DNA of 64,000 nt. Origin: Saprospirales bacterium. Lineage in GTDB: Bacteria > Bacteroidota > Bacteroidia > Chitinophagales > JADIYW01. A program made the translations under genes and the position numbers. The first letter of the stretch is position 1, and every line of letters starts with the position of its first letter. The stretch spans positions 194,320 through 258,319 of the forward strand of contig JADJSS010000004.1 in assembly GCA_016711605.1 (NCBI GenBank), written 5' to 3'. Below the pieces are notes generated by a model. That model worked only from the letters and a program-made list of their open reading frames with translations, searched no databases and had not been told where the DNA came from. Shown one piece after another: positions 20,855-54,504 of this stretch.

Positions 20855-20911
20855 GTAAATAATAAAAATTATTATTTAGTTGCATAATTAATTATTTATA
20901 TTTAATTTTGC

Positions 20912-20926
20912 GTGTAAATAATACAC
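20912..20926 (+). promoter_or_regulatory. candidate operator palindrome upstream of the NrtR-like gene
   Basis: GTGTA-N5-TACAC located 19 nt upstream of the ATG at 20945. Confidence 0.25.
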
Positions 20927-20944
20927 ACAAATAATTTATAAAAA

Positions 20945-21617
20945 ATGCAAGTAGCAGTTGATATAGTAATTTTTGGATATGATGGTCAAGATGTAAAAAT
21001 CATGTTGGTGAACGTAAAGGCGAACCATACCATGATAAATATGCTTTGCCTGGTGGTTTGGTTCGTGATACTGAAACTTGCGAATCCTGTGCAAGAAGAA
21101 CTTTGTCAGAAAAACTGGCTATTGATAATTTATACATAGAACAGCTAGGTTCTTTTGATGCTGTAAATCGAGATCCACGTGAACGTATTATTTCTGTTGC
21201 TTATTTTTCTATTATACGACAAGATGCATTGCAAACTATTTTAGGTCGTGGTGTGAGTGATGTCATTTGGGAAAACATGTTTGATATTAAGAAAATCGCA
21301 TTTGACCATAATGAAATTATACATGAAGCTATTAAGCGTGTTCAAGGTAAATTAGCGTATGAACCTATTGCATTTGAGTTACTAAATAAAAATTTGCATT
21401 ATCAGAAGTACAGAAAATTTATGAAACTTTTTATAATCAGGAAATAGATAAACGAAATTTTAGAAAGAAAATATTAGCACTGAATATCTTAAAAATATCA
21501 GGAAATATTGATAGAGCAGGTCGAACACCTTTTATGTATTCAATAAACAAACAGGAATTAAATAAAATTAAAAACCATCAACAATTGATAGAATTAACCA
21601 ACTTATGGAAAAAATAA
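20945..21617 (+). CDS. nrtR: NrtR-like regulator: Nudix domain plus C-terminal winged-helix-like domain (two frameshifts, near 21005 and 21400)
   Basis: Degenerate Nudix box GGLVRDTETCESCARRTLSEKLAI; about 80 aa C-terminal extension (EVQKIYETFYNQEIDKRNFRKKILALNILK); position directly ahead of prs and nadV as in described NrtR regulons. Confidence 0.6.
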
Positions 21618-22438
21618 AAACAATTAATTTATTTGAATTATCAGATGAGTTTATTATCAGCAAATTTGCTGGCGGCGAATGTCATGTTAAATTTCTACAA
21701 AAAATAGAAGATGAATTTGTAAGAATTAATACACGTTTAAATTCTTCTGATGATGTGATGGTTTTATGTTTAACTGTAGATGCTTTACGCAGAATGAATG
21801 TTAAGTATATTGAAGTATTTATTCCATACATTCCTTATGCACGACAAGATAGAGTGATGGTGAAAGGTGAACCATTGTCTATTAAAGTATTTGCCAATAT
21901 TATTAATAGTTTTCAATTAAATAAAGTTATCGTTTTTGATGCACATAGCGATGTTTCTGTTGCATTAATAGATAGATGTGAAAATATGACTAACTATGAA
22001 ATGGTGAACCATATTATAAAAAGCGAATTAAAATATAACGAATTCGTATTGGTGTCGCCAGATATTGGTGCTTATAAAAAGATAGAAAAATTAGGTAAGT
22101 ATACAGGTTGTAAAAATGCATTAGCAGTAGGTATGAAAGTTAGAAATTTAGATACTGGCGATATAATAAAAAGTGAAGTAATAACACACGATGAAGATCA
22201 AGATAAACCACATATTATTGTAGATGATATTTGCGATGGAGGAAGAACTTTTATTGAGATTGCAGCAATCTTAAAACAAAAAAATATTACCAATCTATCA
22301 CTTATTATTTCACATGGTATTTTTAGCCATCATGCAATAGAAAACTTATACGATGCAGGATATAAAAATATCTTCAGTAGCAACTCAATAACAGACAGAA
22401 TAGATACAAACTTTTTTAAACAGATAAATATTTTTTAA
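21605..22438 (+). CDS. prs: short ribose-phosphate pyrophosphokinase-like protein (Prs family; possibly ADPR-directed)
   Basis: 277 aa; VFDAHSD and PRPP-loop IIVDDICDGGRT motifs; start overlaps the end of the NrtR-like gene. Confidence 0.7.
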   Translation: MEKIKTINLFELSDEFIISKFAGGECHVKFLQKIEDEFVRINTRLNSSDDVMVLCLTVDALRRMNVKYIEVFIPYIPYARQDRVMVKGEPLSIKVFANIINSFQLNKVIVFDAHSDVSVALIDRCENMTNYEMVNHIIKSELKYNEFVLVSPDIGAYKKIEKLGKYTGCKNALAVGMKVRNLDTGDIIKSEVITHDEDQDKPHIIVDDICDGGRTFIEIAAILKQKNITNLSLIISHGIFSHHAIENLYDAGYKNIFSSNSITDRIDTNFFKQINIF

Positions 22439-22987
22439 ATGACAACATATAATTTAGATTGGTTGATAAAGAAATGTCAGTCAAAAGAAAATATAAAATA
22501 TATAGCATTCTGGGGACACCAACCCAGTAAGGATGGTAAACTTACTAAAACTTGTTTTAGCCAATGGTGGTATGCTTCATTTGTGGTGGATGAGGTTGAA
22601 TATAAAACAGCTGAACACTGGATGATGGCAGAGAAAGCAAGATTGTTTGATGATAGTAAAATTATAGATAAAATTGTAAATGCTAAAACACCAGCAGAAG
22701 CTAAGAAACTAGGCAGGTTAGTGAATAATTTTGATGCTGCAAAATGGGATTTACATAAGTTTGAAATTGTTGTGAATGGTAACTATCATAAATTCAAACA
22801 GAATAATAATATCAAGAAGATTTTATTGGAAACAAAAGATAATGTTATAGTTGAAGCAAGTCCAGTTGATAAGATTTGGGGAATTGGATTGTCACCAGAA
22901 CATCCACAGGTTAATTATCCTTGGAAATGGAAAGGCGAGAATTTATTAGGCTTCGCTTTAATGGAAGTAAGAGATTTGTTAAAATAA
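22439..22987 (+). CDS. NADAR (YbiA/DUF1768) family protein
   Basis: FWGH...FSQWW, YKTAEHWMMAEKARLF, AKKLGR, EASPVDKIWGIGL motifs; ATG directly abuts the prs stop. Confidence 0.8.
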   Translation: MTTYNLDWLIKKCQSKENIKYIAFWGHQPSKDGKLTKTCFSQWWYASFVVDEVEYKTAEHWMMAEKARLFDDSKIIDKIVNAKTPAEAKKLGRLVNNFDAAKWDLHKFEIVVNGNYHKFKQNNNIKKILLETKDNVIVEASPVDKIWGIGLSPEHPQVNYPWKWKGENLLGFALMEVRDLLK

Positions 22988-22990
22988 AAA

Positions 22991-23030
22991 CGTTGCTTCT
23001 TTGCGTCCTTTGCGTGAAATAAAATTTAAT
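22991..23030 (+). repeat. CTTTGCG-type intergenic cassette, copy 1
   Basis: cgttgCTTCTTTGCGTCCTTTGCGTGAAATAAAATTTAATAA followed by ATGAAAA. Confidence 0.7.
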
Positions 23031-23032
23031 AA

Positions 23033-23443
23033 ATGAAAACAACATTATACAGACCAGTTGGATTAAAAGAGATGGAATTAATTGTTGCATCTGGTTGGAG
23101 AAAATTTCCACTTAGATTAGAATGGCAACCAATATTTTATCCAGTATTAAACCAACAATATGCAGAACAAATTGCGTTAGATTGGAACACTAAAGATGAA
23201 TTTTCTGGTTACTGTGGCATAGTTACTGCATTTGACATAAGTGATGAATATCTTAAGCAATATGAAATTCAAAATGTAGGTGGTGCAGTACATAATGAAC
23301 TTTGGATACCATCAGAAAAATTAGAAGAATTCAATCAAAATATTATTGACAAAATCAGAATGGTAAATGCATATTTTGGTGAAGGTTTCAAACCATCAAT
23401 AAATACTGAATTGATGAATGAGTTGCAAAAATATCAACTATAA
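23033..23443 (+). CDS. conserved hypothetical protein embedded in the ADP-ribose/NAD island
   Basis: 136-aa ORF (LYRPVGLKEMELI...FPLRLEWQPIFYPVLN...DWNTKD...NELWIP); no family name recognised. Confidence 0.6.
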   Translation: MKTTLYRPVGLKEMELIVASGWRKFPLRLEWQPIFYPVLNQQYAEQIALDWNTKDEFSGYCGIVTAFDISDEYLKQYEIQNVGGAVHNELWIPSEKLEEFNQNIIDKIRMVNAYFGEGFKPSINTELMNELQKYQL

Positions 23444-23500
23444 CCTTTGCGCACTTTGCATCTTTGCGTTCCGAAATTTCAGAATTGCGTAAAATAAACA
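23444..23500 (+). repeat. CTTTGCG-type intergenic cassette, copy 2
   Basis: AACCTTTGCGCACTTTGCATCTTTGCGTTCCGAAATTTCAG..., followed by ATGAAAA at 23510. Confidence 0.7.
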
Positions 23501-23509
23501 CAAAACAAA

Positions 23510-24025
23510 ATGAAAATAGAAATAATACAAGCAGATATCACAACCGTACAAGTGGATGCCATTGTGAATGCAGCAAATACGTCTTTGCTTGGTGGCGGCG
23601 GTGTTGATGGCGCAATTCATCGAAAAGGCGGTAAGGTTATATTAGATGAATGTATGACTATCAGAGATAGACAAGGTAATTGCAAAACAGGAAATGCAGT
23701 GATAACTACAGCTGGAAATTTACCTGCAAAATATGTTATTCATACTGTTGGGCCAGTTTGGAATGTTGGTAATAATAAAGAAGAGCAGTTATTAGAAAAT
23801 TGTTATATAAATTCTTTAAAGTTAGCTGTTGAAAATAATGTAAAAACAATTGCATTTCCCAATATCAGCACGGGAATTTACCACTTTCCCAAAAAAAGAG
23901 CAGCTGCTATTGCATTCCAAACTATTCAGAATTTTCCCAACAAAGATTATTTTGATAAAATAGTATTTGTATGTTTTGATGATGAAAATTTTCAGTTGTA
24001 TAAAAATTATCAAACCAATCAATAA
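23510..24025 (+). CDS. Macro domain protein (ADP-ribose-1''-phosphatase / O-acetyl-ADP-ribose deacetylase type)
   Basis: [25 protein letters not shown] and [12 protein letters not shown] motifs. Confidence 0.9.
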
Positions 24026-24030
24026 GATAA

Positions 24031-24884
24031 AACAAGCTTTTAGGTTTAGCAATCGGCGATGCATTAGGAGTTCCTGTTGAATTCTACTCAAGGGAACAAC
24101 TAGAAAATCGACCTATTAAAGATATGATAGGATATGGTAGTTGGAATCAACCACCAGGTACTTGGTCAGATGATAGTTCACTTACTTTTTGTACCGCTGA
24201 AAGCTTGTTGGATGGATATGATGCAGAAAAAATGTTGACCTTATTTGTAAGATGGTATAAAGAAGGTTATTGGGGCGCACATCATAAATTATTTGATATT
24301 GGACAAACTACTCGATTATCTATAGCCAGATTTATAAAAAATGGATTTAGTAATATGAATGGTGAATTTGATGTGGACTCCAATGGCAATGGTTCTTTGA
24401 TGCGTATACTGCCAATGGCATTCTATCTAACAAAAATACAGGATATAGATACAAGATATAATATCATTAAAGAAGTATCATCTTTAACGCATGCGCATTT
24501 TCGAAGTGTTTTATCTTGTTTTATTTATGTTGAATTTGCTATTCATTTAATAAATGGAAATAAACCACAAGATGCATATAATTCAATGCAAAAAACAGTG
24601 AATGATTTTGTTGCAAAAATGGAATTTAATCAAAAAGAAGTGGAGCTTTTTGATCGAATTTTAAAAATGAATATTGCAATTGTTGATGTTGATTTTATTC
24701 GCTCATCTGGATATGTATTGTCAACATTAGAAGCAAGTTTGTGGTGTGTATTAAAATCAACAACTTATGTAGAATCGACTCTAAAAGCAGTAAATCTTGG
24801 TGGCGATACAGATACACTGGACCGTAAGGTGGTATTGCGCAACTATGGTATTGATGATATCCAGATAGATGGTTGAAAAAATAA
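24031..24884 (+). pseudogene. ADP-ribosylglycohydrolase (DraG/ARH family), no start codon for the conserved N-terminus and several 3' frameshifts
   Basis: LLGLAIGDALGVPVEF and WSDDSSLT motifs lie upstream of the first ATG (24124). The C-terminal GGDTDT...GIDDIP-DRWLKK can only be read by switching frames about 4 times between 24815 and 24870. Confidence 0.8.
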
Positions 24885-24890
24885 AATAAC

Positions 24891-25444
24891 ATGAATGAAC
24901 AACATAAAAAAAGTATCAGCAAATTTTTAAGCTTGATACTGCGACACAGTCCACAAACGATTCAGCTACAACTCGATGAAAATGGCTGGGTAAACACAGA
25001 TGAATTAATTTCTAAATGTGCTAAACATAAACATGTCTTTACTTTTAAAGAGTTGGAAGAAGTTGTTGCAACAAACGATAAACAACGTTTCATCTTCAAT
25101 GAAGATAAAACAAAGATAAGAGCCAATCAAGGTCATTCAATTGCTATTGATTTAGTATTGCAACCACAAACACCACCTGATTATTTATATCATGGCACTG
25201 TTTCGAAATTTCTGAATGATATAAAGAAAGATGGTTTGTTGAAGATGAGTCGCCAGCACGTGCATTTAAGTTCAGATAAAGAAACAGCTATAAAAGTGGG
25301 CAGCAGAAGAGGTGTGCCTGTTATTCTTACAGTAAAATCTGTAAAGATGTATCAAGATGGTTACTCATTCTATCTTCAGAAAATGGTGTTTGGTTAACCG
25401 ATCACGTACCAGCAAATTATATCGAATTTAAAATTAAAAGATGA
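24891..25444 (+). CDS. kptA: RNA 2'-phosphotransferase Tpt1/KptA (one frameshift near 25375)
   Basis: KFLSLILRHSP, GWV, NQGHS, LYHGT, HVHLS motifs; the C-terminus SENGVWLTDHVPANYIEF lies in another frame; TGA overlaps the next ATG (ATGA at 25441). Confidence 0.85.
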
Positions 25445-26174
25445 ACACAACTTATGTTATTGGTGATATACATGGTGCTTTAAAAGCGTTGATACAAGTA
25501 TTGAATAAAGTACAACCAACGAATGAAGATACCTTTATTTTTTAGGTGATTATGTAGATGGCTGGTCTGAATCAGCACAAGTAATAGACTATTTGATTGA
25601 ATTTAATAAACATCACCAATGCGTATTCGTTAAAGGGAACCATGATGTTTGGACAATGGATTGGCTGCAAGGAAAATCAGTAGATCCAATTTGGCTGAAA
25701 CATGGCGGTATGGAAACAATTGATAGTTATAAAGGTTTGGGTGATGAAAGAAAAGCTCAACATCTGGATTTCTATCAAAATCTGCAGAATTATTTTATCG
25801 ATGACAAAAACAGATTATTTATTCATGCAGGATTTTCTTCTATGCACGGACCAGCTTCTGAATTCTATATGACCAATTATACTTGGGATAGAACACTTTG
25901 GGAAATGGCATTAACGTTGGATAATCGCATTCAAAAAGATTCTGTCCTATATCCAAATAGATTGAAGTTATACCATGAAATTTATATAGGTCATACACCA
26001 ACGATTAATTATAAAGTTGATGTTCCAATGAATGGTTGTAATGTGTGGAATATAGACACAGGTGCAGCATTTACGGGCAAACTCAGCATCATGAATATAG
26101 ATACCAAACAATTTTTTCAAAGCGATATTATTAAAGAATTATATCCAAATGAAGTTGGTAGAAATAAAAGATAA
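25441..26174 (+). CDS. calcineurin-like metallophosphoesterase (one frameshift in the T-run at 25531-25536)
   Basis: VIGDIHG, (F)LGDYVDGW, VKGNHD, GHT motifs; adding one T to the T-run restores TFIFLGDYVDG. Confidence 0.8.
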
Positions 26175-26186
26175 AATACTTTAAAA

Positions 26187-26240
26187 ACTTTGCGCCTTAG
26201 CTTCTTTGCGCTCTTTGCGTGAAATTAAAATTTAAAAATG
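26187..26240 (+). repeat. CTTTGCG-type intergenic cassette, copy 3, followed by a dead copy of the nadV start
   Basis: ACTTTGCGCCTTAGCTTCTTTGCGCTCTTTGCGTGAAATTAAAATTTAAAA, then ATGAAAATTAATCCATACTAA (compare nadV ATGAAAATCAATCCATTCTTA). Confidence 0.7.
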
Positions 26241-26300
26241 AAAATTAATCCATACTAAATTAAGTATAAAAATAGCAGACAAAAAATGAATCAATAAAAG

Positions 26301-26345
26301 CAGCGCCTTTGCTTCTTAGCGTTCTTAGCGTTAAATCAAAATTCA
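26301..26345 (+). repeat. CTTTGCG/CTTAGCG-type intergenic cassette, copy 4
   Basis: GCGCCTTTGCTTCTTAGCGTTCTTAGCGTTAAATCAAAATTC upstream of nadV. Confidence 0.7.
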
Positions 26346-26366
26346 ATCAAAATCAAATAAAAAAAA

Positions 26367-27817
26367 ATGAAAATCAATCCATTCTTATTAACCGACTTTT
26401 ATAAAGTTGGGCATCCATTTCAGTATCCTGAAAAAACAACATTAGTGTATTCAAATCTAACTGCCAGAAAAAGCAGATTAGTAAATGTTAATGAAATGGT
26501 GTTCTTTGGTTTGCAATATTTTATGAAAGAATATCTATTAGAATATTTCAATGAATCCTTTTTTCAACAACCTAAAGAAAAAGTAATAAATGAATACAAG
26601 CGAAGAATTAGTTCAGCATTAGGTGGCGATTTACCAACTTACATTCATATTGAAAAATTACACGATTTAGGTTATTTGCCAATAGAAATTAAAGCATTGC
26701 CAGAAGGTAGTAAAGTTCCAATGCGTGTTCCGTGTTTAACCATCGTAAATACATTACCAGATTTTTATTGGTTAACCAATTTTCTAGAATCATTATTATC
26801 TGCTGTTATTTGGCAACCTTGTACTTCTGCAACTATTGCGCATGAATATCGTAAACTACTAGATAAATATGCTATAGAGACAGGTATGCCATTAGATTTT
26901 GTACAATGGCAAGGACACGATTTTAGCTTTCGTGGCATGAGTTCTTTAGAGTCAGCTATCTTATCTGGTATGGGACACCTACTGTCTTTTTCTGGTACAG
27001 ATACCATACCAGCCATTGATGCATTAGAATATTATTATCATGCAAATTCAGATAAAGAATTAATTGGTGGAAGTGTGCCAGCAACCGAACACAGCGTTAT
27101 GTGTAGCGGTGCAAAAGACGGCGAATTAGAAACCTTTAAAAGATTGATTACAGAAGTGTATCCAAATGGCATTGTAAGTATTGTTTCTGATACTTGGGAT
27201 TTATGGAAAGTATGTACAGAATATTTGCCTCAATTAAAACAAGATATTTTGGCAAGAGATGGCAAAGTCGTGATACGACCAGATAGTGGCGATCCTGTTT
27301 TAATTATTTGTGGTAATCCAAATGGTAAAACAGGAGCAGAGCGTAAAGGCTTAGTCGAGTTATTATGGGATGTATTTGGTGGAACGATTACAGATAAAGG
27401 GTATAAATTGTTAGATAGTCATATTGGTGCTATTTATGGTGATAGCATAAATATTGACAGAGCAACGCGTATTTGTGAAAATTTAAAAACGAAGGGTTTT
27501 GCTTCGCAAGTGGTATTTGGAATTGGTAGTTATACCTATCAATACAACACACGTGATACCTTTGGTATGGCAATGAAAGCTACTTATGTAGAGATAGATG
27601 GTGAAGCAAGAGAAATATTTAAAAGTCCAATTACTGATGATGGTACAAAGGTTTCTGCAACTGGATTGTTATCTGTAAAAAAGAGAATAATAAATTTGTG
27701 TTGCAAGATAAAGTAAGCTGGAATGAAGAAAAAAATAGCGATTTAAAAACAGTTTTCTTAAATGGAAAAATTATTAAAGAGTTTACTTTACAAGAAATTA
27801 GAGAAAATTTGATTTAA
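26367..27817 (+). CDS. nadV: nicotinamide phosphoribosyltransferase-like protein (NadV/NAMPT family; one frameshift near 27690)
   Basis: NAMPT-type pattern (TDFYK, FGLQY, GHDFSFRGM, IRPDSGDP, GDS...GIGS); C-terminal FVLQDKVSWNEEKNSDLKTVFLNGK in another frame. Confidence 0.85.
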
Positions 27818-27890
27818 TGTAATCAACACACGTTGAGTATTTACTATTTCATAAAAAATGTAAAGCATTAAATTTGCTAAAATACTAAGC

Positions 27891-29029
27891 ATGATTTCAG
27901 ATTTTTTGCAGCCAGTTGATCAACGTATCATTAATGATTATTACATTGCCAATCCATATATTTCAGATTATATTCATTTATATCACGAAAAAAATCATTA
28001 GAAAATTATACTATTGCCATTTTAGGTGTGGAAGATTATCGTGGTTACATTGCCAATAAAGGAACCGAAAATGCAGCAAATGAAGTTCGCAAACAACTCT
28101 ATCAGTTTTCGGCTTTTACGAATGGAATGCAATTGCTCGATTTAGGAAACATTAAAGCAGGTGATACCTATGTAGATACTTTGGTAGCTGTCGTTGAAAC
28201 CTTGCACGAGCTTTTTAAAAACAACATTATTACAATTGTAATTGGTGGCGATGCTGCTTTAGCTTCGCAATTCAAAGCGTATGATATTTTTGAAAACGAA
28301 ATCACTGTGGCACATATTGCATCCAAAGTTGTTTGGGAAAACAGCGATGTTGATATTCACAAAACGTATTTGAAAGATTTTTTCTTAAGTACAAATTTAA
28401 AAAAATACAATTTAGTTGCGTATCAATCTTATTTTCTACATGAAAAACAATTGTCGTTTTTAAGTAGTAAAGAACATGATGTATTGCGTGTTGGAAAAAT
28501 TCGCGAACATATTTTTGAAGCAGAACCATTATTGCGTGAAGCTGCGATGGTTACATTTAATATCAACGCTATTCGTTATTCTGATGCACCAGCACAACTC
28601 GAACCTTCACCAAATGGTTTGTTTGGTGATGAAGCATGTGGTTTAGCGCGTTTTGCTGGCATGAGTGATTTGTTGATGAGCATTGGTTTTTACGATTATA
28701 ATCCAGCATTAGATAAAAGCGATGTGACTGCAAAACAACTTGCACAAATGGTTTGGTATTTTGTGGAAGGCGTGAGCTTGCGCAGAAATGACTATCCAAT
28801 TGTTGACGAAAAAGATTTTAATATGTTTATTGTTCAGATTGAAGACGCGGAAAATGATTTTATCTTTTTAAAAAGCAAAAAAAGCGATCGTTGGTGGATG
28901 AAAATTATGTATGATAAAAATGGTAAATCCATTCATAAATTAATTCCATGTACGTATAAAGATTATTTAGCTGCTATCAACAATGAAATTCCAGAACGCT
29001 GGATGCGCGAATGGATGCGTTTGAGTTAA
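27891..29029 (+). CDS. arginase/formiminoglutamase-fold protein with substituted metal ligands (one frameshift in the A-run near 27985)
   Basis: IGGDAAL where the family has GGDHS, VAHIAS where it has DAHxD, FNINAI where it has SxDxD; the N-terminal 32 codons (from ATG 27891) are in another frame. Confidence 0.55.
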
Positions 29030-29164
29030 ACAAACTTTTTCAACTTTTATATTAAGATTATTTTAATGCATATCGTTAAGTTAATTAGTAGTTAATTAAA
29101 TGGTTTCTGTTAAACATAGTACGATATTTGTACGCTATATAATTGTTGCATTGTAAAATTATCT

Positions 29165-32064
29165 ATGATTAGACTTGTCATTTCTGTATTTCTGTATTTC
29201 TTTTGTTCTTCGTTTTCTATTGCTCAAAATTTTACCATTTCTGGTAAAATATTAGATTCAAAAGATAACGCACCTTTAATCGGTGTAAATGTTTTACTTA
29301 CAAAAGAAAATGACTCTGTTTTTCAAAAAGGTGCAAGTACCGATTTAGAAGGTAATTTTTCAATTGAAAATGTAGAAACTGGTAATTATAAGTTGAATAT
29401 TAGCTATGTAAGTTTTAAATCTTTCGACAAATCTATTTTAGTTAACGCGAATCTAGATTTGAAAACAATTACATTGGTAGAAGATAGTAAATTATTGAAA
29501 GAAGTAATAGTAGAAGAAAAACAGATTCGTGTACAACAACTTGGTGATACATCACAATTTAATGCAAACGCATTTAAAACCAATAAAGATGCAACTACAG
29601 AAGATTTATTGACAAAAATGCCAGGCGTTACTTCTGAAAATGGAACCGTAAAAGTAAATGGTGAAGAAGTAAAAAGAGTTTTAGTTGATGGTAGACCATT
29701 TTTGGCGATGATCCACGAACTGCAGTGCAAAATTTACCTGCTGATATCATAGATAAAGTTCAAGTGTTCGATAAGATGAGCGATCAGTCTGCATTTACTG
29801 GTTTTGACGATGGAAACTCTCAAAAAACTATAAATATTATTACAAAAATGGATTGAATAATTCAAAATTCGGAAGAGTTTTTGCTGGTTACGGTGGAAAA
29901 AATAACAGATATAATATTGGCGGAAATTATAATTCTTTTAAAGGTGATAAACGTTTTTCTGTTTTAGCTATGAGTAATAATATTAAACAACAAAATTTTA
30001 ATATTCAAGATTTGGTTGGTGCTACCAACACAGGAAATACTGGTGGTTCAGGTAATAGTGGTCGCGGTGGACCAAATGGAATTGGAAGAAATAATCCAGC
30101 AAATAATTTTTTAGTTGGTCAACAAAATGGTATTGCTACAACCACAGCTTTAGGTTTAAATTATGCTGATAAAATTGGTAAACAAAGGAAAGTTACGTTA
30201 ACTGGTTCGTACTTTTTTAATGGTACAAAAAATGTAAATGAAAGTTCAGCTATTCGTAATTATATTTCATCCAACGATAGTAATTTGGTGTATAACGAAA
30301 ATAAAAACACTACCAGTAAAAATTTCAATAATCGTGTAAACCTTAGAATTGAATATGCGATTGATTCATCGAATTTATTAACGTTTACGCCAAGTTTCAC
30401 ATCACAAAATTACAATTCAACATCTATTTTAGATGCGGCAAATTCAAAAAATAATACCGCAATAATTAACTCAACCAATAATACTCAAACGTCAAAACAA
30501 GTAGGTTTTAATTTTTCAAATGATATTTTATATCAACATAAATTTGCAAAGAAAGGCAGAACGATTTCATTTAATTTAAACACTTCTGGAAATTTTAAAA
30601 ATACGAATGGTACTTTATTTACTTACAATCAATTTGAAACAGATTCTACTATAACTGTTGATTCTATTGATCAAAAATCTACCTTAAAAACTAAAAAGTT
30701 ATACGGTTGGCGGAAATATAATGTACACAGAACCTATTAAAAAATTTGGTCAACTTTCTATTAATTATTCACCATCTTATACCAATTCAACATCACAAAA
30801 AAATACGAATAATTTTGATGTTACTTCACAAGATTATTCAAGACAAGACATTGCATTAAGCAATCAATTCAACAATAAATACATTACCAACAAACTTGGA
30901 ATTTCGTATCGATATAACAATAAAAAAATAAACTGGACAATTGGTTTAGTTGGTCAAGATGCTTTATTACGCAGCGAACAAGTGTCACCTAATCAAATTT
31001 CTGTCAATAAAAATTTCTTATCATTATTGCCAAATTCAGAATTAAATGTCAAGTTTTCTAAAACAGAAAATTTGCGTGTTACTTACAGAACATCAACCAA
31101 TCCACCAACTGTTACACAATTGCAAAATGTAATTGATAATAGTAATTCATTGATATTAACTTCAGGAAATCCTGATTTAAAACAAAATTTTCAACAAAAT
31201 ATTGGTTTACGATATAGTAAAACAAATACAAAAAAAGCAACCAATTTATTTGTGTTTGCAAATGCAACAAACACGATAAATTATATTGCTAATTCAACCA
31301 CTATTTTTGTCCGTGATACAATAATTAATAATATTGCTGCAAAAGCAGGAGCACAATTTATTCAACCAATAAATATAAATGGATATTGGAATACTCGAAC
31401 ATTTATAACGTATGGATTTTCAATCACCAAATTAAAAAGCAACATGAATGTGAATGGCGGTTTTGTTTATACACGCACACCAACGCTAATTAATGATGCG
31501 CGAAACAATGCAAATTCTTACGCGTTAAATGCAGGATTTTCTTTAAGCAGCAACATCAGCACAAAGATTGATTTTACGGTTTCGTATAACGCAAATTATA
31601 CAATTGTTCGAAATACATTACAAACTAAAAACAATAATAATTACTTTAATCACACAGCATCAGCTAAGTTTAATTATCAATTCTGGAAAGGATTTGTTTT
31701 TAACACATCTGTGAGTAATACTTTAAATGCTGGTGGTTCGAGCTCTTTCAACACAAGTTACTGGTTGTTGAATGCATCGTTAGCATATAAGTTTTTGAAA
31801 GACGAAAGTTTAGAAGTGAAGTTTAGTGCGAATGATATTTTAAATCAAAATAGAAATATCACGAGAAATGTTACAGATACGTATACAGAAGATACGCGTT
31901 CAACTGCATTGCAACGATATTTCTTAGGAACGATTACTTACACATTTAAAAAAGTAGGTGCGAAGTCTGAAAACCCAAATGAGAAACCAAAAGATTTTAT
32001 GATGATGCCACCACCACCAACTGGTGCTGCTGGACCACCAATGATGCCACCACCTGGAAATTAA
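29165..32064 (+). pseudogene. TonB-dependent-receptor-like outer membrane beta-barrel protein (3 frameshifts: near 29700, 29845, 30695)
   Basis: Signal peptide, CarboxypepD_reg-like N-domain (GKILDSKDNAPLIGVNV), plug-like segment (LLTKMPGVT...VLVDGRPF(F)GDDP), long beta-rich Asn/Thr-rich body ending in aromatic residues, then a Pro/Met-rich tail. Confidence 0.7.
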
Positions 32065-51610: not shown

Positions 51611-52228
51611 ATGAAGAAATACATCATTGCTGGAATTGGAACCAATATTGGTAAAACAGTTACATCTGCAGTTTTAGTGGAGGCACTGCATGCTGATTAC
51701 TGGAAGCCAGTACAATCAGGTAATTTAAACGAAACGGATACTGATTTTGTGCGAAAATATGCAAAAAACCATCAAACTATTTTTCAAGAAGCATTTTTAT
51801 TAAAAGAGCCAGTTTCACCACATTTAGCTGCTAAATTAGAATCAAAAGTTATTGATATAGAACAGATTAAATTAGTTAATACAAATAATCACTTAATAGT
51901 AGAAACTGCTGGTGGTTTGCTTTCACCTTTATCAGAAAAATATTTATGTATTGATTTAATTAAAGAACTACAACTATCTGTTATACTTGTTTCTATGAAT
52001 TATTTAGGAAGCATTAATCATACCTTATTGTCAATTGAAGCATTAAAACAAAGAAATATTCCAATTGAAGGAATAATCTTTTGTGGTGATCCAAATTTTG
52101 AAACTGAAAGATTTATTTTAGAATATTCTAAAATACCTTTACTTGGTAAAATTCCATTTACTGACAATTTGACGCAAGAATTTATTTCAGAACAAGCAAA
52201 ACAATTTAGTCATCTACAAGGTAATTAG
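51611..52228 (+). CDS. bioD: dethiobiotin synthase
   Basis: GTNIGKT P-loop, ETAGG; operon position. Confidence 0.85.
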   Translation: MKKYIIAGIGTNIGKTVTSAVLVEALHADYWKPVQSGNLNETDTDFVRKYAKNHQTIFQEAFLLKEPVSPHLAAKLESKVIDIEQIKLVNTNNHLIVETAGGLLSPLSEKYLCIDLIKELQLSVILVSMNYLGSINHTLLSIEALKQRNIPIEGIIFCGDPNFETERFILEYSKIPLLGKIPFTDNLTQEFISEQAKQFSHLQGN

Positions 52229-52274: not shown

Positions 52275-53237
52275 ATGAAACCACCGTTTGAAGTTACCAA
52301 TACAATCTTGAAATTAATTTCATTAATTTCTGAAAAAATTGGTGAAGTCAATGCCAAATTTTTAGATAAACAAAATCCACAATTACGAAAACAAAATAAA
52401 ATTAAAACTATTCATTCCTCTTTGCAGATTGAAGGTAACACACTAACTATTGAACAAATTACTGCAATTGTTGAAAATAAGCGTGTGGTTGGTCCACAAA
52501 AAGATATTGTAGAAGTTATTAATGCAATTGAGGTTTATGATAATTTATCAAAATTTAATCCAACTATAGAAAATGATTTTCTGCTTGCTCACCAAATGTT
52601 GATGAAAAACCTCATTCAGAATAGTGGTAAATATAGAACTCAATCTGTTGGAATTGTGAATGGAACTATCGTTAAACATATTGCACCATCTTACCAGAAT
52701 GTACCTTTTTTGATGAAAGATTTATTTAATTATTTAAATTCAGATGATGACATTGCTTTACTTAAAAGTTGTGTTTTTCATTATGAAATGGAATTTATTC
52801 ATCCGTTTACAGATGGAAATGGAAGAATGGGACGGCTTTGGCAAACGCTTATTTTAATGTACTCGTATCCTGTTTTTGAGTATTTACCTTTTGAAACTTT
52901 AATTAGCAAAAATCAAGATAACTACTATGCAGCACTTTCTATGAGCGATAAACAGGGAAAGTCAACTATTTTTATCGAATTTATGTTGAACATTATTTAT
53001 CAGTCGCTGTCTGAATTAACTAATTATAACAACAGAATAATAAAAGACACAGATAGAATAGATTATTTCATAAATAAAAATATAAATGAGTTTTCCAGAA
53101 AAGATTATCTAAACATATTTAAAGAATTATCAACTGCATCAGCCAGTCGAGATTTAAAAAAAGGTGTAGAATTAGGTTATTTTGAAAAAACTGGCGACAA
53201 AAAATTGACAATTTACAGACTTAAAAAGAATCAATAA
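52275..53237 (+). CDS. fic: Fic family protein (AMPylase-type) with N-terminal inhibitory motif and C-terminal winged-helix-like domain
   Basis: HPFTDGNGRMGR matches HxFx(D/E)GNGRxxR; SLQIEG matches (S/T)xxxE(G/N); C-terminal STASASRDLKKGVELGYFEKTG. Confidence 0.85.
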   Translation: MKPPFEVTNTILKLISLISEKIGEVNAKFLDKQNPQLRKQNKIKTIHSSLQIEGNTLTIEQITAIVENKRVVGPQKDIVEVINAIEVYDNLSKFNPTIENDFLLAHQMLMKNLIQNSGKYRTQSVGIVNGTIVKHIAPSYQNVPFLMKDLFNYLNSDDDIALLKSCVFHYEMEFIHPFTDGNGRMGRLWQTLILMYSYPVFEYLPFETLISKNQDNYYAALSMSDKQGKSTIFIEFMLNIIYQSLSELTNYNNRIIKDTDRIDYFINKNINEFSRKDYLNIFKELSTASASRDLKKGVELGYFEKTGDKKLTIYRLKKNQ

Positions 53238-53238
53238 T

Positions 53239-54504
53239 ATGCATTTATCCAAAATCGATCAACAAAATATTTGGCATCCGTTTACGCAACATCAAACAGC
53301 AAGTGAAAATTTGGTGATTGTAAAAGGTAAAGATGCGATTTTGACCGACGAGCATGGAAACGAATATATTGATGCGGTTTCAAGTTGGTGGACGAATATA
53401 TTTGGTCACTGCAATGAACATATTTCCAAACGTATCAAAAAGCAATTGGACGAATTAGAGCATGTGATTTTTGCAGGTTTTACGCATCCAACTGCGATTG
53501 AGCTTTCTGAAAAACTGCTTGCTATTTTACCAAAGAATCAAACAAAAATCTTCTTTTCTGATAATGGTTCGACTTCGGTTGAAGTAGCTTTGAAGATGGC
53601 TATTCAGTTTTGTCACAACCAAAACCAACCAAAAAACACCATCATTGCGTTCAAAAATGCCTATCATGGCGATACATTTGGAGCGATGTCGGTTGGTGCG
53701 CGTGGAACTTTTAACCAGCCATTTGAACCATTTTTGTTTGATGTGGATTTTATTGATTTGCCCAATGAAGCCAATTTTGAACACGTTCAACATGAATTTC
53801 AGCAGATTATTCAAGAAAAAAAGGTAGCAGCGTTTATTTTTGAACCATTAATTCAAGGTTCGGCTGGTATGTTGATGTATGAAGCAAAATTTTTGGATAA
53901 ATTGGTCGATATAGCACAACAAAATCAAGTAATTTGTATTGCTGATGAAGTAATGACTGGTTTTTATCGTACAGGAAAAATTTTCGCAACAGACCATTTG
54001 ACAAATAAACCAGACATTTTTTGCATTTCGAAAGGTATAACTGGTGGTTTTTTGCCATTTGGAATTACGAGTTGTTCGCAAAAAATCTACGATGCGTTTT
54101 TAAGTAATGATAAACTAAAAACATTTTTTCACGGACATTCATACACAGGAAATCCGCTGGCTTGTGCGGCTGCCTGCGCGAGTTTGGAATTAATACATGA
54201 TGCACAATTAACGATTAACAATTTAGTTGAATGGCAAAGTCAATATTTATCAAAACTAAAATCAAACACAAAAATTGAAAATTTACGTCAAACTGGTACA
54301 ATCGTGGCTTTTGATGTAAAAACAGATGCTTCATCCAATTATTTCAATAATATTCGCGATTTTTTGTACGATAATTTTATAAAACGCGGCGTTTTACTGC
54401 GACCGCTTGGCAACACCGTTTACGTTTTACCACCATATATTATCACCAAAGAGCAGTTGCAAAAAGTGTATGATGTGATTGATGAAGTGTTGGAAATTAT
54501 TTAA
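53239..54504 (+). CDS. bioA: adenosylmethionine-8-amino-7-oxononanoate aminotransferase
   Basis: Class III aminotransferase pattern, ADEVMTGFYRTGK, DIFCISKGITGG (PLP lysine). Confidence 0.9.
   Translation: MHLSKIDQQNIWHPFTQHQTASENLVIVKGKDAILTDEHGNEYIDAVSSWWTNIFGHCNEHISKRIKKQLDELEHVIFAGFTHPTAIELSEKLLAILPKNQTKIFFSDNGSTSVEVALKMAIQFCHNQNQPKNTIIAFKNAYHGDTFGAMSVGARGTFNQPFEPFLFDVDFIDLPNEANFEHVQHEFQQIIQEKKVAAFIFEPLIQGSAGMLMYEAKFLDKLVDIAQQNQVICIADEVMTGFYRTGKIFATDHLTNKPDIFCISKGITGGFLPFGITSCSQKIYDAFLSNDKLKTFFHGHSYTGNPLACAAACASLELIHDAQLTINNLVEWQSQYLSKLKSNTKIENLRQTGTIVAFDVKTDASSNYFNNIRDFLYDNFIKRGVLLRPLGNTVYVLPPYIITKEQLQKVYDVIDEVLEII

Follow-up and report, generated by a model that had tools for sequence, protein, structure and literature searches.

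A predicted NrtR-gated NARP1 module in a hydrolase-rich gene island of a Bacteroidota chromosome

The window analyzed here, a stretch of 64,000 nucleotides (nt) from Saprospirales bacterium (contig JADJSS010000004.1, positions 194,320 to 258,319), belongs to a wastewater Bacteroidota chromosome and carries on its forward strand, at ~20900-27820, a tight row of genes, an island defined by the open reading frame (ORF) list and by Pfam/NCBIfam scans of the window. Two of its products, a short paralogue of phosphoribosyl pyrophosphate (PRPP) synthetase (the Prs-like protein) and a NAMPT-like protein, resemble Adps and Namat, the two enzymes of the phage pathway NARP1 (Osterman et al., 10.1101/2024.02.11.579819; structures in PMC12774641 and PMC13586617). 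We propose that the pair probably constitutes a chromosomal bacterial NARP1 module, placed in an NrtR-gated operon, which would form NAD directly from ADP-ribose. An Adps-type enzyme would use ATP to pyrophosphorylate free ADP-ribose at its 1'' position, yielding ADP-ribose pyrophosphate (ADPR-PP), and a Namat-type enzyme would condense ADPR-PP with nicotinamide to NAD, with no nicotinamide mononucleotide (NMN) step and no adenylyltransferase. The core of the proposal is a known pathway; what is new is the combined and extended NrtR-gated, hydrolase-rich Bacteroidota architecture, which we did not find described.

The NAMPT-like and Prs-like proteins

The best matches of the NAMPT-like protein in the PDB (phmmer) are entries 9W5X and 9W5W (617 bits, E 1.5e-184), which according to their depositors represent complexes of SPbetaL1 Namat with nicotinamide and with NAD, while mammalian NAMPT and Xanthomonas Nampt reach 244 and 208 bits, respectively, in the same search; entry 9KE8 scores 470 bits. 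The protein shares 63% identity with the Namat of SPbetaL1 and 60% with that of FADO, both functionally tested. The aromatic residues of a motif found only in Namats (GS-X-Phi-X-Phi-X-Phi-TRD) stack on the adenine of ADPR-PP (PMC12774641), and the NAMPT-like protein carries this selectivity clamp as GSYTYQYNTRD. Residue mapping by alignment gives 19 of the 21 NAD-contacting residues of SPbetaL1 Namat as identical, the remaining two (A362S and F392Y) being conservative replacements that are seen in other Namats too. Arg40, the stacking residue of the clamp loop, and the catalytic core residues F189, D215, R306 and D308 (SPbetaL1 numbering) are all kept, and the six positions that distinguish Namats from Nampts (Ser190, Ser/Ala362, Ser391, Phe/Tyr392, Tyr394 and Tyr396) are all of the Namat type. 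An N-terminal insertion of eight residues is common to the NAMPT-like protein and the phage Namats and is missing from the NARP2-type Nampts. In neighbor-joining trees (Kimura distances, with bootstrap), a 99% bootstrap split places the protein with nine phage Namats, apart from three NARP2 Nampts. The features of a canonical Nampt/NadV, that is, the glycine-rich GxGGG-LLQ loop devoid of aromatics stacking on adenine and the association with an NMN adenylyltransferase, were not found. The protein passes the broad model NF006629, which does not separate Namat from Nampt/NadV. By its sequence, the NAMPT-like protein is a member of the Namat family.

The Prs-like ORF, already described in a preliminary description made from the letters of the DNA alone, encodes 277 amino acids (aa; E. 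coli Prs has 315) and indeed contains the two loops reported there, as FDAHSD and VDDICDGGRTF. Its best phage matches (41-42% identity) come from Vequintavirinae phages such as GAP31, which we take to be relatives of the original Bas63; its own relatives are ~30% identical to E. coli Prs. The protein scores 229.6 bits with a profile of nine phage Adps and 108.3 bits with a canonical Prs profile (canonical Prs proteins score 86-114 bits on the phage-Adps profile), and 256 bits with phrog_619 vs 157 bits with TIGR01251; it stays far under the cut-off of every NCBIfam equivalog Prs model (at best 134 bits vs 296). In the neighbor-joining tree the four canonical Prs sequences form a clade of 100% bootstrap support apart from all the short proteins. 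A search of PDB sequences retrieved only canonical PRPS (best 77 bits), from a set evidently devoid of the Adps structures of 2026. One of these, the ICP1 Adps structure (PMC13586617), served as alignment reference. Its pyrophosphate (PP) loop is remodelled (Cys215-Ser220; DDICDGxxxF) with respect to the ribose-5-phosphate loop of Prs (DDMxDTGGT). The corresponding loop of the Prs-like protein, DDICDGGRTF, is identical in the Adps of GAP31, JH2 and LilDestine, whereas canonical Prs have DDMIDTGGTL. The equivalent of the catalytic Lys185, along with the acceptor residues Arg87, His121, Asp161, Asp212 and Asp213, is kept, these residues being necessary without being discriminating since canonical Prs keep them too. 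The Prs-like protein shares with ICP1 Adps a regulatory loop of G-E-P-L-S form; the alignment shows neither an N-terminal helix nor a C-terminal alpha11-12 module in it, and it terminates with ...FKQINIF, ~24 residues short of the C-terminus of E. coli Prs; loss of the alpha11-12 module is a defining signature of Adps (PMC13586617). It thus shows none of the marks of a canonical class I Prs (equivalog cut-offs, DTGGT loop, N-terminal helix, C-terminal module), and its sequence supports its grouping with phage Adps, not with canonical Prs. For both proteins, phylogeny and pocket residues therefore agree with the Adps/Namat-like chemistry that the preliminary description had put forward.

The short Prs-like family is large, with 1115 clusters retrieved at E <= 1e-30 in an exhaustive search. 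The N-terminal part of the profile phrog_12872 (547 positions) matches the Adps-like protein and its C-terminal part the Namat-like protein; since one profile spans both, natural Adps-Namat fusion proteins are suggested to occur in some phages.

The domains found in the island are an NrtR-type Nudix domain, Prs-like, NADAR, Macro, ADP-ribosylglycohydrolase (ARH), Tpt1/KptA, metallophosphatase and NAMPT. No NadD, NadM or NadR adenylyltransferase domain occurs in any island ORF (Pfam and NCBIfam scans), which bears out what had been stated before. A tblastn search of ~155 related loci with a phage NadM returned only matches to the Nudix part (i.e., NrtR), and neither prs nor nadD, nadM or nadR is found among the window ORFs of at least 200 aa. 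A second, housekeeping prs, about which the preliminary description had asked, was seen in relatives only: at locus L054 a full-length canonical prs (product 49.5% identical to that of E. coli) lies 2 kb from the island on the same contig, and a canonical prs likewise accompanies the short paralogue within the assemblies JACDED01 and DATMPR01.

These results bear on a classical salvage route, in which the short Prs would make PRPP for a NadV that forms NMN, with NadD, NadM or NadR encoded elsewhere completing NAD. This route was proposed for nrtR-prs-nadV operons by Rodionov et al. (PMC2330246), it agrees with the names that Pfam and NCBIfam give to the two proteins (Prs and NAMPT/NAPRT, TIGR01251 and NF006629 being exceeded at their cut-offs). 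We know of no bacterium without some NMN- or nicotinic acid mononucleotide adenylyltransferase. Nevertheless, all the Namat-specific clamp residues are present, the DTGGT loop that holds the phosphate of ribose-5-phosphate is replaced by DGGRT, the N- and C-terminal Prs elements are missing, all equivalog Prs models fail, and the relatives already have a canonical prs. Moreover, purified SPbetaL1 Adps gave no product in a Prs-type control assay while being active on ADP-ribose. The supply of ribose-5-phosphate is a further difficulty: the Nudix box of NrtR is degenerate (RTLSEK where the consensus is REUXEE), NrtR probably acts as a sensor and not as an ADP-ribose pyrophosphatase, and the island therefore appears to encode no enzyme that makes ribose-5-phosphate from ADP-ribose. 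We regard classical salvage as unlikely.

Regulation, conservation and chromosomal setting of the island

The intact 223-aa NrtR orthologue of a closely related contig (L011) consists of a NUDIX domain (PF00293) and a winged-helix domain (NrtR_WHD, PF21906). The palindrome GTGTAAATAATACAC is situated nineteen nt 5' of the nrtR start codon and is the only exact match to GTGTA-N5-TACAC in the 64 kb of the window. It includes the GT-N7-AC core defined for NrtR by Rodionov et al. (PMC2330246). The nrtR start is resolved in 118 related loci; in 72 of these, GTGT-N7-ACAC occurs in the 130 nt that precede the gene (114 sites in all), whereas 1.84 Mb of background contain 38 sites, which corresponds to an expectation of 0.003 per 145 nt. 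A scan of the window alone for inverted repeats did not single out the operator; the comparison across loci did. TAnnTTTG is the consensus of the Bacteroidetes -7 promoter element, and the relatives show the same arrangement of this element and the operator as the window. A sigma-70 promoter scan found sites no more often than in shuffled sequences, its model being unsuited to Bacteroidetes promoters. Control of the operon by NrtR, assumed from the start, is thus backed by a strongly enriched predicted operator.

Two scans of species-representative genomes yielded at least 156 bacterial loci, with at least 567 confirmed matches in the second; a single protein as query retrieved no close relative, while an alignment query retrieved the relatives. 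Most of the at least 156 loci contain NrtR, Adps-like and Namat together, on contigs of up to 6.5 Mb, and the layout is common to >100 Bacteroidota loci, many of them from cultured Flavobacterium, Tenacibaculum, Cellulophaga, Olleya and Pedobacter strains. The clamp motif is present in every one of the 80 loci retrieved using the Namat alignment; an Adps-clade gene lies within 6 kb upstream in 61 of them and nrtR is present in 54. The upstream Adps-clade proteins measure 263-292 aa where the ORF is complete (two are cut by the edge of the locus), and the complete ones score 172-249 bits as Adps vs 59-106 bits as canonical Prs, with the PP loop DDICDGG[GA]TF. Between Adps and Namat the relatives carry varying combinations of NADAR (present in many of the related islands), Macro/ARH, Tpt1, metallophosphatase, DUF4291 and a gene for a 136-aa protein.

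The window Namat is closest (76-82%) to those of Chitinophagaceae, whose Adps-like proteins are only 31-38% identical to that of the window, while the window Adps-like protein is closest (58-67%) to those of Fluviicola and other Bacteroidia metagenome-assembled genomes (MAGs), in which the Namat motif is GSYTYEYVTRD. In the loci compared (L100-L116), the Adps-like and Namat modules look shuffled, those of the window coming from different lineages.

The island is flanked in the window by housekeeping genes (hemF, icd, ruvB, comM, recF, a gene for a XerD-like recombinase, the bio operon, comEC and yidC), and no phage or integration genes were found in these flanks. The setting speaks against the pair being anti-defence cargo derived from a phage or another mobile element rather than host housekeeping. 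Such an origin would fit the shuffled look of the modules, the differing chromosomal neighbourhoods of the island between genomes and the fact that the family is best known from phages (~1570 phage records have a homologue). Against it, ruvB, comM, recF and TonB-receptor genes adjoin instead of integration functions, the island begins with a metabolite-sensing repressor of host type whose operator is conserved, the arrangement is conserved across many Bacteroidota chromosomes, and NARP1 is reported to be enriched in non-mobile chromosomal regions (10.1101/2024.08.21.608784). We consider anti-defence cargo very improbable.

A second type of nrtR-Prs-like-NAMPT trio was encountered in Pedobacter, Mucilaginibacter, Sericytochromatia, Saccharibacteria and Bdellovibrionales (loci L056-L072, L076-L080, L084 and L086). 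Its Prs-like protein belongs to the Adps clade, with the PP loop DDICDGGATF, and the NAMPT gene directly adjoins. This NAMPT is without the Namat clamp (it has GVGGILRNHSRD, with glycines at 190, 362 and 391) and groups with the NARP2 Nampts. Either the clamp is not essential in the Pedobacter-type lineage or some Adps-clade enzymes make PRPP.

Several points weigh against a NARP1 module in the window. As the Pedobacter-type NAMPT lacks the clamp, belonging to the Adps clade may not be enough to determine the substrate, and it is mainly these pairs that keep our confidence in the chemistry at a reasonable level rather than a high one. In vitro, Namat enzymes can still form NMN from PRPP, roughly half as fast as human Nampt, which also speaks for classical salvage and leaves an NMN route conceivable. 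The Prs-like protein is only 30-33% identical (~80 bits) to the assayed Adps of Bacillus phages, the canonical Prs panel comprises only four sequences, and support for the internal nodes of the Prs-like tree is low. The coexistence with a canonical prs is known from relatives, not from the genome of the window itself, in which, furthermore, five island genes are frameshifted and DUF4291 is absent.

Gene row and assembly state

The features of the island are listed in Table 1. The last 13 nt of nrtR overlap the beginning of the Prs-like gene. Counted downstream from the Adps-like gene, the Namat-like gene comes seventh in the window and eighth in L011, where the island is intact, and so lies within the ten genes used as the limit for an Adps-associated Namat homologue.

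Table 1. Features of the island in window coordinates.
Feature	Position	Strand	Remarks
TAATTTTG, matching the Bacteroidetes -7 element TAnnTTTG; putative promoter	20903..20910	+	abuts the operator
Predicted NrtR operator, palindrome GTGTAAATAATACAC with GT-N7-AC core	20912..20926	strandless	
nrtR, Nudix-like sensor domain and NrtR winged-helix domain	20945..21617	+	NF050029 matches a fragment; split at 1-nt homopolymer deletions at ~21011 and ~21388 in the window assembly
Adps-like short Prs paralogue, 277 aa	21605..22438	+	intact
NADAR-domain protein, 182 aa, ADP-ribose-releasing hydrolase family	22439..22987	+	PF08719, E 1.7e-54
Conserved 136-aa protein without known family	23033..23443	+	
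Macro::ADP-ribosylglycohydrolase fusion	23510..24876	+	484 aa in L011-L013; in the window split by indels at 24020 and 24038, C-terminus gone (807-bp deletion)
Tpt1/KptA RNA 2'-phosphotransferase	24891..25437	+	PF01885, NF002014; frameshift at 25375
Calcineurin-like metallophosphatase, 244 aa in relatives	25441..26174	+	PF00149 on the L011 orthologue, phrog_246; frameshift at 25538
Namat-like NAMPT-family protein, 483 aa in relatives	26367..27817	+	1-nt deletion at ~27677

As assembled, the NAMPT ORF ends at 27716, one A being absent from an A7 run at ~27677; with this base restored the gene runs to 27817 and encodes 483 aa as in the relatives, so that the end coordinate given in the preliminary description is right. 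The reference for such corrections was a set of three contigs (L011-L013, from two NCBI MAGs and one Logan run) that are 97.5% identical to the window and hold the island intact, with NrtR of 223 aa, Prs-like of 277, NADAR of 182, the 136-aa protein, Macro::ARH of 484, DUF4291 of 220, Tpt1 of 182, metallophosphatase of 244 and NAMPT-like of 483. The window differs from them by ~28 small indels over 20938-30693, mostly losses of single A/T bases in homopolymers, which disrupt nrtR, Macro-ARH, Tpt1, the phosphatase gene and the NAMPT gene. Since these indels break many ORFs, the ORF calls in the window are unreliable. A deletion of 807 bp at 24876/24878 takes the C-terminus of ARH and the DUF4291 gene in its entirety. 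In three metagenomes, short-read contigs continue past 24876 into sequence absent from the window, and the deletion reflects either strain variation or an error of assembly.

The frameshifts and the 807-bp deletion would be accounted for if the island of this genome were a decaying, functionless pseudogene cluster. Most of the lesions are 1-nt A/T homopolymer losses, though, and the same pattern breaks the neighbouring TonB-dependent receptor ORF (29165-32064), while the Adps-like, NADAR and 136-aa genes are intact. Short-read contigs from four wastewater/activated-sludge metagenomes have some of the missing bases, and metatranscriptome contigs, which cover the island, have others. Because these independent short-read and RNA-derived contigs lack the deletions, the frameshifts look like assembly errors of the kind typical of a long-read consensus, not like decay, which we hold to be quite improbable.

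The 136-aa protein has no Pfam or PHROG match. It has >3400 homologues, some of them mislabelled 'ADP-ribosylation/crystallin J1', and its gene adjoins Macro/ARH in related islands. The invariant residues of the family include R7, E13, W31-Q32-P33, N40, W51-N52, S58-G59, Q80-N81 and E89-W91; a structure model from the single sequence (pLDDT 38) gave no usable fold. The 193-bp gap before the Namat gene contains GC-richer repeated words at 26183-26340 (ctttgcgc / cttagcg, in two blocks) and shows length variants in metagenome contigs (joints at 26183-26223 and 26244-26303). Downstream of Namat, an arginase/formimidoylglutamase-family gene (27891-29029) occurs only in the window and its closest relatives; since it does not accompany the island elsewhere, it is probably not a member of it. 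Farther away, a Fic/DOC-domain ORF (52275-53237) lies inside the biotin operon, between bioD-like (51611-52228) and bioA-like (53239-54504) genes.

Comparison with known systems and the proposed pathway

The window pair has in common with phage NARP1 the two protein families and their signature motifs, the position of Adps upstream of Namat and the predicted chemistry. It differs in lying in a Bacteroidota chromosome behind an NrtR repressor and in having six genes between its members (seven in close relatives); moreover, the phage genes are expressed early, whereas the operon of the window is presumably induced by ADP-ribose. In GAP31 a gene for a 177-aa hypothetical protein without Pfam match (L003:3759-4292) is located between Adps and Namat, and PAK_P1 has a small ORF in the same place, so that phage NARP1 operons also carry uncharacterised inserts.

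A chromosomal bacterial NARP1, as envisaged in the preliminary description, is what the window appears to contain, but it is less new than was assumed there (PMC12774641; 10.1101/2024.08.21.608784; PMC2330246). That some bacteria carry NARP1 outside prophages was already remarked on by Osterman et al. An AntiDefenseFinder survey found it enriched in non-mobile chromosomal DNA (10.1101/2024.08.21.608784), and the pfAdps and pfNamat of Paenibacillus foliorum are reported to be active in vitro and in vivo, a housekeeping origin being discussed by the authors (PMC12774641). These bacterial systems resemble that of the window as host-encoded, non-mobile Adps/Namat pairs with a proposed role in NAD and ADP-ribose homeostasis. 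The P. foliorum system differs as a Firmicute two-gene module, its proteins being 54% and 72% identical to those of SPbetaL1, while the window Adps represents a Bacteroidota lineage and is only 30-33% identical to the Adps of SPbetaL1 and FADO. Neither PMC12774641 nor 10.1101/2024.08.21.608784 connects NrtR to NARP1, and their sections consulted here describe no ADP-ribose-releasing hydrolases with bacterial NARP1. An NrtR-NARP1 connection was not found in the literature searched, in which only one paper mentions both, without relating them. Such neighbourhoods may already have been described by de Souza and Aravind in 2012 (Mol Biosyst 8:1661) and in a 2015 review by Aravind.

Operons of the nrtR-prs-nadV type are known from Shewanella, Acinetobacter ADP1, Chromobacterium and Cytophaga hutchinsonii (Rodionov et al. 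2008, PMC2330246). Like the window, they combine NrtR and a GT-N7-AC palindromic operator with a second prs paralogue and a nadV-family gene, and ADP-ribose is an anti-repressor of NrtR in vitro (PMC2330246). Unlike the reading preferred here, they were interpreted in 2008 as a PRPP supply for NMN synthesis, with the role of the second prs left open.

A phage precedent for a Macro-domain enzyme in such an operon is NARP1-AP (Adps, the Macro phosphatase Adpp and Namat; 10.64898/2026.01.28.702374), in which this enzyme makes free ADP-ribose from a derivative for Adps. The Macro domain of the window may be of another kind: its best models (NCBIfam) are O-acetyl-ADP-ribose deacetylase and ADP-ribose-binding types, the Adpp of NARP1-AP being Poa1p-like by description, and this domain, apparently of MacroD/YmdB type, is fused to ARH and accompanied by NADAR, Tpt1 and a metallophosphatase. 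With NARP2 and the classical NadV-NadM salvage (KVP40 type) the island shares a NAMPT-family enzyme and nicotinamide as input; unlike the protein of the window, which stands across the 99% bootstrap split, the NARP2 Nampts have GMGGGLLQ..RD instead of the clamp, lack the N-terminal insertion and adjoin NadM, as in L099.

We propose that NrtR sits on the GTGT-N7-ACAC operator beside the promoter when ADP-ribose is scarce and that it would leave the DNA as ADP-ribose accumulates, allowing expression of the operon. The genes between the Adps-like and Namat-like genes would supply free ADP-ribose and nicotinamide, the sources being ADP-ribosylated macromolecules, O-acetyl- or phospho-ADP-ribose, and RNA 2'-phosphate removal. 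NADAR and ARH may strip ADP-ribose off macromolecules, and Macro domains may deacetylate or dephosphorylate ADP-ribose derivatives. Tpt1 would use NAD and release nicotinamide and ADP-ribose 1'',2''-cyclic phosphate, a compound that the phosphoesterase and the Macro domain could turn into ADP-ribose.

On a broader scale, we put at about even the chances that many Bacteroidota possess a self-contained, ADP-ribose-induced regulon in which variable hydrolases (NADAR, Macro-ARH, metallophosphatase, DUF4291 and the 136-aa family, with substrates including ADP-ribosylated DNA, RNA and protein) and Tpt1 feed Adps and Namat, and that this represents the ancestral physiological role of NARP1. If true, the second prs paralogue, for which no explanation was given in 2008, would be accounted for, and two uncharacterised families, DUF4291 and the 136-aa family, would gain a substrate class. 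Genome annotation routinely mislabels the Adps and Namat genes as Prs and nicotinate/nicotinamide phosphoribosyltransferase. The layout is present in the type strains Cellulophaga fucicola DSM 24786, Tenacibaculum skagerrakense DSM 14836 and Pedobacter soli DSM 18609 and in Olleya sp. R77988 (complete genome), all of them cultured, and bench work is therefore directly feasible. The locus joins the regulation by NrtR and ADP-ribose (2008), the phage reconstitution of NAD (2024) and the abundance of chromosomal NARP1 genes (2024-2026), and it offers a testable physiological role for the latter, which may be the substrate-induced recycling of ADP-ribose from the turnover of ADP-ribosylation.

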